Shown: one piece after another, positions 679 through 4,296 of the stretch
How positions within the stretch are numbered: the first letter of the stretch is position 1
How the letters are laid out: every line of letters starts with the position of its first letter
DNA from: a virus
Taxonomy: Duplodnaviria > Heunggongvirae > Uroviricota > Caudoviricetes
Virus record (IMG/VR): IMGVR_UViG_2671180603_000005
Reading direction: 5' to 3' (one strand)
DNA length: 4,524 nucleotides
The notes under the pieces: generated by a model
Database searches by the model: none
Seen by the model: only the letters and a program-made list of their open reading frames with translations
What the model was told of the DNA's origin: nothing
Program-made: the position numbers and the translations under genes

Positions 679-965
679 AAATATCCCTCCTTTCTCCAGA
701 TTTCTTGTGTGCGAAAAACACCTTCTGCATGCATCAGGCGTAATTCTTCTTTGGTGTAATCGCTGGTTTTTACCCGCCCGTCGATTAAATCGTGGCACGA
801 GCTACAGGCAATCGCTGCCTGCATATCGTGTGGCTTTATCGCTGTTCCGCACGTTCCCGCCAGTCGGTAATGCGCCAGCACAGACGTTTCCGGATCGTGA
901 TTGCAGTAGCCAGGAATTCTGACGGTGCACATCTGCCCCCGCGCCGCTTTACGTAAATCCACCAT
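675..965 (-). CDS. DUF1364 family protein (YbcO-like, Cys-rich putative zinc-binding/nuclease-like), 96 aa
   Basis: Translation MVDLRKAARG..CTVRIPGYCN..ETSVLAHYR..ACSSCH resembles my recollection of DLP12 YbcO. GGAG sits 8 nt upstream of the ATG at 965. Its stop overlaps the Q start (ATGA), and its start overlaps the upstream stop (TAATG), suggesting translational coupling. Confidence 0.6.
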   Translation of the reverse strand: MVDLRKAARGQMCTVRIPGYCNHDPETSVLAHYRLAGTCGTAIKPHDMQAAIACSSCHDLIDGRVKTSDYTKEELRLMHAEGVFRTQEIWRKEGYL

Positions 966-1270
966 TACGCAAACTCCAGCAGCTGCGCGGCCACATTTTC
1001 GACTTGTTCCGGAGAGGAAAATTTACGGAACAGAATCCAGTTCCACAGCACATTCAGAACAGATTTATAAACCTGCTGAAACTCGGTTTCGTCCATATTC
1101 GCAAAAGCGATGGATTTTGCCCGACGCCCGCGGCTACCGTCCGGATAAAAATGTTCGGTGTAAAATCCAGCCTGAATGGTTACCCACTCGCGAAAAGCCT
1201 CAAACGACTTTAGCAATGCCGTATCCCGGGTTCTGCGTGTCGCAACTGTATTCAGATATTGCTCTGCGGC
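965..1270 (-). pseudogene. 3' fragment of a DUF1367-family gene (C-terminal ~101 codons), in frame but with no ATG start
   Basis: Open frame runs from the TAA at 1273..1271 down to the stop at 967..965. It encodes ..AAEQYLNTVATRRTRDTALLKSFEAFREW..QQVYKSVLNVLWNWILFRKFSSPEQVENVAAQLLEFA. The track's start at 1216 is a TTG codon. The first ~70 codons duplicate the 3' end of the upstream ORF (1271..1774). Confidence 0.55.
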
Positions 1271-1273
1271 TTA
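1064..1273. repeat. Tandem repeat unit 2 (210 bp) of a divergent in-frame tandem duplication
   Basis: 1064..1273 aligns base-for-base with 1274..1483, with about 12 mismatches in 210 bp (~94% identity). The offset is exactly 210 bp (70 codons). Confidence 0.85.
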
Positions 1274-1774
1274 TTTATAAACCTGCTGAAACTCGGTTTC
1301 GTCCATATTCGCAAACGCGATAGATTTCGCCCGACACCCACGGCTACCGTCCGGATAAAAATGCTCGGTGTAAAATCCGGCCTGAATGGCTACCCACTCG
1401 CGGAAAGCCTCAAACGACTTTAGCAATGCCGTATCACTGGTTCTGCGTGTCGCAACTGTATTCAGATATTGCTCTGCGGCTTCGCTCAGAGCTGGCGTAT
1501 GTTCCCGGCCTACTGATTCACACAGGTAATCAACGAAACCGGACACCAGTTTTCGTTCGCGAGGCGTGATCGCCCCACCGACCGGAGTCCAGTAATCGAA
1601 ACCCAGTTGCAGGAGTTTGAAAAAACGCTTGTGGAATGCGTAGTTACACACACGCTTAAAGTCTGCGTGTATCCACTCACCTATTTTGATTTGATGCAGA
1701 AAATCGCAACTCTCCGGCGTCGCCGGGAGAAGTAATCCGGAAGAGGTTTGTTTGATCAGTTGTATATGCGCCAT
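1271..1774 (-). CDS. DUF1367 family phage protein, 167 aa, C-terminally truncated by a stop at the duplication junction
   Basis: ATG at 1774..1772 with GGAG 6 nt upstream. Translation MAHIQLIKQTSSGLLLPATPESCDFLHQIKIGEW... The intact protein is inferred to be ~199 aa (167 aa plus the 32 aa that follow the repeat in the downstream fragment). Confidence 0.6.
   Translation of the reverse strand: MAHIQLIKQTSSGLLLPATPESCDFLHQIKIGEWIHADFKRVCNYAFHKRFFKLLQLGFDYWTPVGGAITPRERKLVSGFVDYLCESVGREHTPALSEAAEQYLNTVATRRTSDTALLKSFEAFREWVAIQAGFYTEHFYPDGSRGCRAKSIAFANMDETEFQQVYK
1274..1483. repeat. Tandem repeat unit 1 (210 bp), inside the DUF1367 ORF
   Basis: Partner of 1064..1273. The junction triplet at 1271..1273 (plus-strand tta) reads TAA on the minus strand and terminates the upstream ORF, where the corresponding codon in the other unit is GAA. 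Confidence 0.85.
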
Positions 1775-1800
1775 CGTAGTTCTCCGCTGGCGCAGTAGAA
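1553..1800. repeat. Dispersed direct repeat, copy A (5' end of the DUF1367 gene plus ~25 bp upstream)
   Basis: 1553..1774 matches 2283..2504 with only 2 mismatches. The upstream portions (1775..1800 vs 2505..2530) are more diverged. The copies lie 730 bp apart in direct orientation and flank the IS2 fragment. Confidence 0.85.
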
Positions 1801-1816
1801 TGGGTGTTCAGCCCGT

Positions 1817-2282
1817 TGGATTTGCCCCTATATTTCCAGACATCTGTTATCACTTAACCCATTACAAGCCCGCTGCCGCAGATATTCCCGTGGCGAGCGA
1901 TAACCCAGCGCACTATGCGGATGCCATTCGTTATAATGCTCGAACGCCTCTGCAAGGTTCTTTGCTGCCGTTAACCCGTCTGGTTTGGGCATGATACTGA
2001 TGTAGTCACGCTTTATCGTTTTCACGAAGCTCTCTGCTATTCCGTTACTCTCCGGACTCCGCACCGCCGTGTTCTTCGGTTCAAGTCCCAACATCCGGGC
2101 GAACTGGCGTGTTTCATTAGCCCGGTAGCATGAACCATTATCCGTCAGCCACTCCACTGGAGACGACGGAAGATCGTTGCCGAAGCGGCGTTCCACCGCT
2201 CCCAGCATGACGTCCTGTACTGTTTCACTGTTGAAGCCGCCGGTAGTCACCGCCCAGTGCAGTGCCTCACGATCACAGCAGA
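1817..2282 (-). mobile_element. Truncated IS2 (IS3 family): right-hand ~466 bp including the terminal inverted repeat
   Basis: Plus strand 1817.. reads TGGATTTGCCCCTATATTTCCAGACATCTGTTATCACTTAACCC, which matches the IS2 right inverted repeat as I recall it. The adjacent minus-strand ORF encodes the InsD C-terminus. Homology ends abruptly at about 2282, so roughly 865 bp of the 1331-bp element are absent. Confidence 0.8.
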
Positions 2283-2283
2283 T
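1828..2283 (-). pseudogene. insD: IS2 transposase InsD (OrfB), C-terminal ~150 codons only
   Basis: Translation ..[150 protein letters not shown] matches the IS2 InsD C-terminus. The N-terminal part and insC are missing. Confidence 0.8.
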
Positions 2284-2504
2284 CGTTCGCGAGGCGTGAT
2301 CGCCCCACCGACCGGAGTCCAGTAATCGAAACCCAGTTGCAGGAGTTTGAAAAAACGCTTGTGGAATGCGTAGTTACACACACGCTTAAAGTCTGCGTGT
2401 ATCCACTCACCTATTTTGATTTGATGCAGAAAATCGCAACTCTCCGGCGTCGCCGGGAGAAGTAATCCGGAAGAGGTTTGTTTGACCAGTTGTATATGTG
2501 CCAT
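2247..2504 (-). pseudogene. Truncated second copy of the DUF1367 gene (first 74 codons) fused into IS2-derived sequence
   Basis: ATG at 2504..2502. Translation MAHIQLVKQ...AITPRER is nearly identical to the N-terminus of the 1271..1774 ORF, then continues as [11 protein letters not shown] out of frame through IS2 sequence to a stop. The track's start at 2546 is a TTG extension. Confidence 0.6.
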
Positions 2505-2530
2505 CGGCTTTCTCCGGTGGCACGGTGTTA
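2283..2530. repeat. Dispersed direct repeat, copy B (second 5' end of a DUF1367 gene)
   Basis: Near-identical to 1553..1800 (see copy A). Confidence 0.85.
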
Positions 2531-2542
2531 CACAGCAGGAGT

Positions 2543-2830
2543 TCAATCCTGCTCAAGATTGTAGATGAGTTTATTCTTCAGCAAAAGCAGAAAACCAGCC
2601 TTAAAACCAATCTCTTTCAAAACCCGTAATGATGTGACAAATTCGTCCTCACGCAAAATAAAACCGTCCGTCAGAAGTCCATTACAAAAATAAAATAACA
2701 CAGCACCGCTCTTCCTTTGTTGAGATTGCAAACATCTAATGCGGCAATGGCTGACAATCGCTCCATTCTCAACGCGCACAGCATAGAGGCCATTTTCACT
2801 AAAAATTTCACGCAATTCTTCGATTTTCAT
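2543..2830 (-). CDS. Hypothetical small protein, 95 aa (phage orphan ORF; occupies the position of rem in Qin-like prophages)
   Basis: ATG at 2830..2828 with GGAAGGA about 8 nt upstream and a candidate promoter further upstream. No recognisable motif. Its stop abuts the upstream region of the truncated DUF1367 copy. Confidence 0.45.
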   Translation of the reverse strand: MKIEELREIFSENGLYAVRVENGAIVSHCRIRCLQSQQRKSGAVLFYFCNGLLTDGFILREDEFVTSLRVLKEIGFKAGFLLLLKNKLIYNLEQD

Positions 2831-2939: not shown

Positions 2940-2954
2940 ATTCACCGGAAATAA

Positions 2955-3002
2955 ACAACAAAAAACCCGCCGAAACGCTGAGAGATCACAGCGATGGGCG
3001 GG
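2955..3002 (-). terminator. Intrinsic terminator at the 3' end of the hok transcript
   Basis: Minus strand: CCCGCC..CGCTG / CAGCG..GGCGGG interrupted stem-loop (3002..2966) followed by TTTTTTGTTGTTTATTT. It lies about 80 nt downstream of the hok stop. Confidence 0.6.
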
Positions 3003-3079
3003 TTAAGTGCGGGTGCGTTGAGGATGCCTGACACATCAGAGGTGGGCAGGGATGGGATCAGCTCCCCGCCCGGTCACTC

Positions 3080-3235
3080 TTACTTCCTGGATTCGTAGTC
3101 TACGAAGACAGCGACCTCCGTCTGGCCGGTTCGGATTCGTACCTCACAGAGGTCTTTCCTCGTTACCAGTGCCGTCACTATGACGGTTAAACAGATGACG
3201 ATCAGGGCGATTAACATCGCCTTTTGCTGCTTCAT
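3080..3235 (-). CDS. hok: Hok/Gef-family type I toxin (small membrane peptide), 51 aa
   Basis: Translation MKQQKAMLIALIVICLTVIVTALVTRKDLCEVRIRTGQTEVAVFVDYESRK closely resembles HokD/RelF as I recall it, with the hydrophobic helix and conserved Cys. AAGGAG sits 9 nt upstream of the ATG at 3235. The track ORF (start 3292) is an in-frame upstream extension. Confidence 0.85.
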   Translation of the reverse strand: MKQQKAMLIALIVICLTVIVTALVTRKDLCEVRIRTGQTEVAVFVDYESRK

Positions 3236-3411
3236 AGCCTGCTTCTCCTTGCCTTTCGGCATGTAAGAGGCTAACCTACATGTGCAAAGCATGAAATTGG
3301 CCTCAGATTAATGTTAAGCGTCTTGCCGGACGCGTAATGTTAACTGGGGCTTTTCTCTATCTGCCTTTTGGTGTTCATGCCTGAAGCAGATAGCCTCAAG
3401 CACCCGCAGTC

Positions 3412-3441
3412 ATTCTACTTACCTCGCCAATATGAAATCAA
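3412..3441 (-). promoter_or_regulatory. Candidate promoter for hok mRNA
   Basis: Minus strand: -35 TTGATT (3441..3436), 18-nt spacer, -10 TAGAAT (3417..3412). It would give a ~170-nt leader before the hok ATG, consistent with the long structured leaders of hok mRNAs. Hexamer match only. Confidence 0.35.
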
Positions 3442-3462
3442 TCAGAAAGGTGCCCCATAAAA

Positions 3463-4149
3463 TCACTCCTTCTCTTCTTTACCGTAGTGGAGTTGACCAA
3501 TTTTGATAAGAGGGCGTCCCTGAGATTTGCGGTGTAGATTGGTATCGCGCAGAGAATACACACAGCCACAATATTCCTGCTGATAGAATTTTTCGCGCTT
3601 GCTGATTTCAATCATACGGGACGAGCCGCCCTGCTTGCGCCAGTTATAATCCCAGTACACCATGCCCGGATAATGCGCGACGGCTCGCCGCCCACAGTCG
3701 TTAACCTGCTGCATATTTTTCCAGCGTGAAATGCCCAGTGAACTGCTGATCACACTGAAACCATTTTCAGCGGCGTACAGCGCTGTCCGCTCAAAACGCA
3801 TGTCAAAACACATGGTGCAACGGATCCCTCGTTCGGGCTCCCATTCCATTCCTTTGGCTCGTTCAAACCAGTTGTCTGTGTCGTAATCAGCATCAATAAA
3901 CGGCACGCCGTGTTGTTCAGCAAAGCGAATATTCTCATCCTTACGAATTAAATACTCTTTCTGAGGATGAATGTTCGGGTTGTAGAAAAAGATGGTGTAG
4001 TCGATTCCCGAGGCCTGAAGCGCCTCCATCACCTCACCGGAACATGGAGCACAGCAAGAGTGCAGTAGTAGTTTGTTTGCCCCGTTTGGGAGCTCCAATT
4101 TGGGCCGTTTGAAATCAGCAACTGTCATAAATATGTTTATTGGGGTCAT
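3463..4149 (-). CDS. DUF208 / QueH-like protein (putative B12-independent epoxyqueuosine reductase homologue), 228 aa
   Basis: N-terminal [11 protein letters not shown] motif, a central RCTMCF CxxC pair and C-terminal YCGCVYS, matching the cysteine pattern I associate with the QueH/DUF208 family. Two candidate ATG starts (4149 and 4128), neither with a clear Shine-Dalgarno. Assignment is from memory and unverified. Confidence 0.55.
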
Positions 4150-4210
4150 AAAAATATCAAAGAGTGTAGCATTAGAACGGGGCTATCGGAAACAGATGTG
4201 TGACTGCTCC

Positions 4211-4226
4211 CCGCCCTTTCGGGCGG
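4211..4226. other. GC-rich hairpin (6-bp stem, tetraloop) between the partial CDS and the QueH-like gene
   Basis: CCGCCC-TTTC-GGGCGG perfect inverted repeat. No adjacent U-tract on either strand, so not a canonical intrinsic terminator. Confidence 0.4.
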
Positions 4227-4296
4227 TCTCCTGATGATTTGAGGGTGCAGAAATCCCTCCGGTTAAGGATTAAATTTTTAACAGTGCTAAATTTAA

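Follow-up and report, generated by a model that had tools for sequence, protein, structure and literature searches.

What is a gene for an enzyme of tRNA queuosine modification doing in a lambdoid prophage beside a hok toxin, and does it serve the host, the phage or neither of them? The question is raised by a 4,524-nt stretch of tailed-phage DNA (hereafter, the window), in which an initial annotation made from the letters alone had recognized a QueH-like (DUF208) gene carried as prophage cargo next to hok. Our analyses make it likely that this gene is a working QueH, captured by a phage, which would give E. coli lysogens a B12-independent route from epoxyqueuosine (oQ) to queuosine (Q). The argument draws on the following features of the window.

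4195 to 4199, no strand: upstream mosaic junction of the queH module, where homology to the window stops.
4163 to 4171, minus strand: putative extended -10 element TGCTACACT, 34 nt upstream of the start at 4128.
3463 to 4128, minus strand: queH coding sequence, 221 aa from the second ATG (PF02677, 7lc5 and RefSeq match).
3293 to 3462, minus strand: queH-hok spacer, which holds the hok/mok leader and a promoter-like site.
3441 to 3412, minus strand: promoter-like site TTGATT-18-TAGAAT (sigma-70 scan).
3230 to 3405, minus strand: sok model region (hok mRNA leader and Sok antisense target; Rfam RF01794).
Up to 3292, minus strand: mok-like in-frame extension of hok.
3080 to 3235, minus strand: hokD-type toxin gene, 51 aa (HOK_GEF 79.9 bits; NCBIfam Hok subfamily; RefSeq hokD).
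2955 to 3004, minus strand: hairpin CCCGCC...GGCGGG plus T-run after hok (direct sequence reading).

The affiliation of the protein is confirmed: it is a full-length member of the QueH/DUF208 family. Pfam PF02677 (QueH, formerly DUF208) matches it with 220.6 bits, far above the cut-off of 23.5 (E 1.9e-65), over profile positions 1-174 of 175, and the three cysteine motifs on which the family assignment was first based are present as HSCCAPC (residues 30-36), C111-T-M-C114 and C194-G-C196. A phmmer search of PDB sequences retrieved only QueH of Thermotoga maritima and its mutants (7lc5, 9dco, 9d86; E about 5e-22), the best being 7lc5 (E 5e-22), and Cys9, 10, 87, 90, 169 and 171 of the T. maritima enzyme align with Cys32, 33, 111, 114, 194 and 196 of the query. 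Li et al. in 2021 reportedly described the metal ligands of QueH, with a [4Fe-4S] cluster and an adjacent iron. The fifth residue of the first motif is a cysteine, CCxPC, in 109 of the 113 diverse representatives that have a CCxP motif (from a sample of 150 representatives of a 50%-identity library, 37-82% identical to the query), so that it is T. maritima, and not the window protein, that departs from the usual form. The window protein also retains each position that is invariant among 24 close homologues. An AlphaFold2 model, built from 25 sequences, reached moderate confidence (mean pLDDT 71.9, pTM 0.74), with low pLDDT around residues 191-201, the CGC motif included. At that confidence it has the QueH fold, with its adenine-nucleotide alpha-hydrolase-like core: the solved T. 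maritima QueH entries (among them PDB 7lc5, 7lc7 and 9deu) take the top five places among Foldseek matches in the PDB, with E values of 1e-11 to 1e-9 and TM scores of 0.79-0.82 (normalised to target), followed by TtuA-type sulfurtransferases with much weaker scores. The profile search and the structural comparison that the initial annotation had proposed as checks thus both bear out its reading of the family.

The limits of the gene called for a refinement. The minus-strand ORF of 228 aa that was first proposed does exist (3463 to 4149, with an in-frame upstream ATG at 4149), but RefSeq and the orthologues place the start at the next in-frame ATG, at 4128, and the N-termini of the orthologues together with a constant spacing to the upstream motif make this the likely start of a 221-aa protein. 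Sequence reading revealed no clear Shine-Dalgarno before either ATG. The identity of the gene is already public, as are the name and the family of the enzyme: E. coli FDAARGOS_944, the best-matching genome, has an identical gene in the matching place, annotated in RefSeq as ‘epoxyqueuosine reductase QueH’ of 221 aa (WP_012421537.1), and this exact sequence is a RefSeq ‘MULTISPECIES [Enterobacteriaceae]’ protein found in at least 1000 contigs. No NCBIfam model matched the window protein, so the RefSeq name must stem from another rule. The phage resources present an annotation gap, as the matching PHROGs family (phrog_3217, 460 bits) is labelled ‘unknown function’ and the gene of Escherichia phage HannyBb, an isolated phage that carries queH (11576-12262 of the compared stretch), is annotated as hypothetical, while Pfam and RefSeq have the QueH name.

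That the gene is prophage cargo beside a toxin gene, as originally suggested, also holds. It lies inside a lambdoid prophage, in the nin-type region, with the replication genes on one side and the Q antiterminator on the other, and HannyBb carries the same gene. The neighbours of queH in the window match those of the FDAARGOS_944 prophage, integrated beside ybhA/modC, which reads on one strand cro-like, ydaT, hypothetical, ydaV, DUF977, hypothetical, queH, hokD, rem-like, DUF1367, DUF1364, DUF1133/Q antiterminator, four tRNA genes and lysis genes. The toxin is supported by the Pfam HOK_GEF match, which covers 3080-3292, by PHROG 251 (‘MokW-like host killing’) and by a full-length Rfam sok match (RF01794, 117 bits versus a gathering score of 59, model positions 1-157 of 157). 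The hairpin at 2955 to 3004 is likely to form the 3' terminus of the hok transcript and to bound the module downstream; it was missed by a terminator scan, probably on account of its long loop. Identical hexamers, TTGATT and TAGAAT, occur at two promoter-like sites on the minus strand, the one at 3412-3441 preceding the hok/mok leader and the other, at 2912-2939, the rem-like gene.

Other details of the region deserve mention in their own right. The DUF1367 (ydfU-like) gene is scrambled (window positions 965-2546), with a tandem 210-bp duplication (1063-1272 and 1273-1482, 95%) and a 244-bp repeat (1553-1796 and 2283-2526, 97%) flanking a 465-bp IS2 transposase fragment at 1817-2281; this exact arrangement was found in no complete E. 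coli genome, the best two covering 89% of it in 3-4 pieces. Between queH and the hypothetical gene upstream of it, immediately beyond the module junction, lies a GC-rich hairpin, CCGCCC-GAAA-GGGCGG (4207-4231); it has no T-run on the coding strand and might act as an early-right terminator that is weak or sensitive to antitermination. In the FDAARGOS_944 prophage, the four tRNA genes downstream of the Q antiterminator (14624-14934 of the compared stretch) are those for Ile, Arg, Thr and Gly, none of them among the queuosine substrates (Asp, Asn, His and Tyr).

If queH is cargo, what does it replace? The initial annotation proposed that, in the Qin prophage, relBE lies upstream of hokD where queH lies here, and saw in this a cargo swap. 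This order is right, as K-12 MG1655 reads ydfT(Q)-ydfU-rem-hokD-relE-relB, and the slot is indeed shared, but the exchange is not a simple one. Window and Qin are about 80% identical at the DNA level from rem through hokD (Qin stretch 10000-10420 against window 2940-3470), the homology starting only 15 nt before the hok ATG, with relE upstream of that point in Qin. Since K-12 Qin, in addition, gives no match to Rfam sok, relBE appears to have replaced the mok/sok leader in Qin, whereas in the window queH precedes an intact hok/sok.

The slot is variable well beyond these two cases. Surveyed across genomes, as the initial annotation had advised, homologues of the gene occur in prophages at three chromosomal settings and in HannyBb, the only well-defined phage with QueH in a tblastn search of GenBank phages. 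Another 24 GenBank phage matches were unannotated faecal contigs or very large records, probably with host DNA, and were not counted. Homology to the window ends at 4195-4199 in 62 of 81 phage/prophage loci, and only 14 loci share its gene upstream of queH; at the other side it ends at 2990-3019, just past the hok 3' hairpin, in 45 of the 81, and near 3300 in 13. The spacer is kept with queH in 80 of the 81, and hok lies downstream in 66 of the 79 loci with enough flank, the remaining 13 being without hok. In APEC O1, queH belongs to a Rac-type prophage adjoining trkG and is followed by hok and a Doc-family toxin; in the Z1832 prophage of O157:H7, it is followed by a cytosine methyltransferase and an NgoMIV-type endonuclease (2806-4816 of the compared stretch) and in the CUVM3 prophage by a DUF1971 gene and an IS3-family element, hok being absent from both. 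Judging from these breakpoints, queH and hok/sok seem to form a small mosaic module, roughly 1.2 kb long, that is shuffled among lambdoid phages. Lying within a prophage, between mosaic junctions, at a slot whose content varies among related phages, queH has the setting of a moron. The slot itself gathers defence and addiction cargo, such as the restriction-modification pair of Z1832 and the Doc-family toxin pair of APEC O1.

The frequent company of hok raises the suspicion that queH is a neutral passenger without useful activity in E. coli, kept by its linkage to hok/sok addiction and by the success of the prophages that carry it. Besides the counts of shared spacer and hok given above, this would accord with the presence of QueG in every host genome: queG occurs in all of 5426 complete E. 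coli genomes, in agreement with the statement of the initial annotation that E. coli normally uses QueG for this step, and queH in 995 of them (~18%), so that queH is always a second gene for an oQ reductase in these genomes. The queH copies are near full length in 985 of the 995, almost always single and chromosomal, and 90-100% identical at the nucleotide level. A neutral gene, however, would be expected to gather replacements and frameshifts, and queH has not. In the best 80 of the 188 matching IMG/VR stretches, the ORF is intact in 80 out of 80 and 19 nucleotide alleles encode 6 protein alleles with four variable residues; the most divergent pair differs by 22 synonymous versus 3 non-synonymous changes (dS 0.17, dN 0.0055), and the median dN/dS is 0.033 for pairs with dS > 0.02. 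Comparison of these alleles shows queH to be under purifying selection in prophages. Together with the invariant residues kept, a dN/dS of ~0.03 and intact ORFs argue against both decay and change of function. The 13 loci without hok, as well as Z1832 (with its adjoining restriction-modification pair) and CUVM3, are further evidence that queH persists without the toxin, which leaves a mere passenger a distinctly improbable explanation.

Where did a conserved QueH come from? Its closest relatives outside Escherichia, 89-92% identical at the amino acid level, are chromosomal and stand among metabolic and regulatory genes and not among phage genes. In Scandinavium, Kluyvera and Enterobacter (89-92%), queH is amid genes for a dehydrogenase, a glycosyl hydrolase, DeoR, LysR and a methyltransferase; in Erwinia, it lies between purL and a two-component sensor kinase gene and, in Providencia, close to tmcA. 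The representative of a 90%-identity cluster with Citrobacter, Klebsiella and E. albertii as named members adjoins a LysR regulator and acetyltransferases. Only one of 80 species-representative loci, that of E. albertii, has lambdoid neighbours. The phage-borne gene therefore seems to have been captured from a chromosome of the Enterobacteriaceae and to have spread since within Escherichia prophages. In general, QueH is unusually well conserved, with 75-80% protein identity across gamma-, beta- and alpha-proteobacterial species; a few records, such as a Bacillus subtilis contig (78%) and a Candidatus Avacidaminococcus MAG (86%), look from their titles like contaminations.

This kinship also bears on whether QueH has been repurposed in the phage, acting on a substrate other than oQ-tRNA, for instance 7-deazaguanine in DNA, or in defence or counter-defence. 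The cargo that related phages have in the slot (relBE, hok, a Doc-family toxin and an NgoMIV-type restriction-modification pair) would be fitting company for a defence gene, and phages do use enzymes of Q-precursor synthesis in DNA modification (PMC6884629). Yet the protein remains 89-92% identical to chromosomal QueH with every invariant residue in place, PADLOC gave no match to a defence family at E <= 0.01 for the window QueH, and the annotations of HannyBb and of the 33-kb prophage stretch list neither DpdA/Tgt-like nor preQ0-pathway genes. A published survey of 7-deazaguanine genes in viruses, moreover, reported no homologues of QueA, QueG or QueH in those analysed and none linked to DNA modification (PMC6884629). 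All this favours a conserved enzyme, as far as its residues and neighbours tell, and makes a new function very improbable indeed, even more so than a passenger role.

A short motif upstream of queH suggests how the gene may be expressed. The element TGCTACACT fits the extended -10 pattern TGnTAnnnT and occurs in 79 of the 79 prophage copies for which upstream sequence was read. In Scandinavium, Kluyvera, Enterobacter and Symbiopectobacterium, the chromosomal queH is preceded by TGCTACA(C/A)T, 33-36 nt before the start, the flanks having diverged, and the looser GCTA[CT]A[ACT]T lies upstream of queH in 10 of 79 species loci versus 0.5% of random 141-nt windows. Shared as it is by prophage and chromosomal copies, the motif suggests that queH arrived with its own promoter, and we infer that the module can be expressed in the lysogen from this element. 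An Rfam search found no cobalamin or preQ1 riboswitch that would tie queH to B12 or Q status.

Expression could nonetheless follow the phage cycle. Because the gene is within the phage early-right operon, it may be expressed mainly on induction, and queH might then serve the phage itself, being transcribed from pR in lytic growth, topping up Q and tuning the decoding of NAU/NAC codons in late genes. In favour of this, queH sits inside the early-right (nin-type) region, from the replication genes to Q, and points the same way as its neighbours there, and a generic sigma-70 scan requiring both hexamers reported neither a strong promoter nor any other upstream of queH, nor a terminator; according to a preprint, moreover, queG expression and Q levels go up in Shewanella on phage infection (10.64898/2026.03.05.709803). 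On the other hand, the conserved extended -10 motif, native in type, points to autonomous expression, a single lytic cycle would seem short for remodelling the tRNA pool through turnover, and none of the tRNAs that the related prophage encodes (Ile, Arg, Thr and Gly) is a Q substrate. As the main explanation for the gene, a lytic role is thus unlikely, albeit less so than the two alternatives already discussed; it is compatible with service to the lysogen.

We therefore return to the reading that we prefer, a B12-independent queuosine route offered to the lysogen. QueA makes oQ on tRNA-Asp, -Asn, -His and -Tyr, and QueG or QueH reduces it to Q (PMC9508795, PMC4646009, PMC13443448); QueG uses cobalamin and iron-sulfur clusters and QueH is iron-dependent (PMC9508795, PMC4646009). 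The E. coli host supplies the tgt/queA pathway and, hence, the oQ-tRNA (PMC9508795). Probably along with its native promoter, queH would have been taken by a lambdoid phage from a chromosome of the Enterobacteriaceae, and would have landed in the cargo slot that follows the replication genes and precedes the Q antiterminator. From there, the module of about 1.2 kb, usually with hok/sok, would move between lambdoid prophages of E. coli and E. albertii. In the lysogen, QueH would act as a cobalamin-independent iron-sulfur enzyme converting oQ to Q at position 34 of the four tRNAs, a lysogenic conversion that would add a second Q route independent of imported corrinoids. E. coli has no de novo B12 synthesis, and the reduction of oQ in this species is said to depend on cobamide (B12), a result ascribed to Frey et al. 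in 1988 (cited in PMC4646009). Since the host QueG needs B12 and E. coli does not make it, a prophage QueH would let lysogens finish Q without imported corrinoids.

Both the activity of the enzyme in E. coli and the benefit of B12-independence are inferred here. The benefit is conjectural, as no phenotype has been reported, to our knowledge, by which oQ-tRNA and Q-tRNA could be told apart. Queuosine as such affects the speed and accuracy of decoding at NAU/NAC codons and has been linked in E. coli to biofilm formation, virulence, and metal and oxidative stress (PMC10570037, PMC9508795). Staphylococcus aureus is reported to have both QueG and QueH, with different expression patterns (PMC13443448).

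The wider proposition is that lambdoid phages convert the tRNA modification state of their hosts through a self-expressed, B12-independent QueH, freeing about one in five E. coli strains from imported corrinoids (BtuB uptake) for queuosine, and we see even chances that it is right. If so, the decoding of Asp, Asn, His and Tyr codons would change under B12 scarcity, or where pressure from phages or colicins has led to the loss of BtuB, and QueH would be the first enzyme from the tRNA-specific steps of queuosine synthesis to be described on a phage. It would constitute a simple and testable example of a phage auxiliary gene acting on host tRNA modification and not on metabolism or defence. Carriers of queH include APEC, NMEC and O157:H7 strains. 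Our search of the open-access literature found no paper on phage- or prophage-borne QueH; the primary QueH papers lay outside that search and may contain an earlier mention, but the phage location of queH seems not to have been discussed previously.

Set against known systems, the protein matches the profile of the QueH family (DUF208, PF02677, COG1636) over its full length and has all six cysteines of T. maritima QueH in register, differing from that enzyme in Cys36, where T. maritima has Asp13. The reaction predicted for it, oQ34-tRNA to Q34-tRNA, is that of QueG (PMC9508795, PMC13443448). QueG belongs, however, to an unrelated protein family with a different cofactor, and queG is a core gene of E. 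coli whereas queH is an accessory one. Compared with the chromosomal QueH of Enterobacteriaceae, 89-92% identical, the difference is one of setting, a housekeeping locus there versus lambdoid prophages and one isolated phage here. As cargo, queH occupies the same slot upstream of hok-rem-ydfU-Q as relBE-hokD in Qin, where the hok/sok leader is missing and in the window intact, and resembles other nin-type cargo (‘moron’) genes in its sharp mosaic junctions and putative own promoter. The cargo of Qin is nevertheless a toxin-antitoxin system and that of other nin-type regions restriction, whereas here it is a tRNA-modification enzyme. Finally, FolE, QueD, QueE, QueC and DpdA are, like queH, queuosine-pathway genes found on phages (PMC6884629), but those enzymes make preQ0-type bases for phage DNA, while QueH acts after insertion of the base into tRNA.
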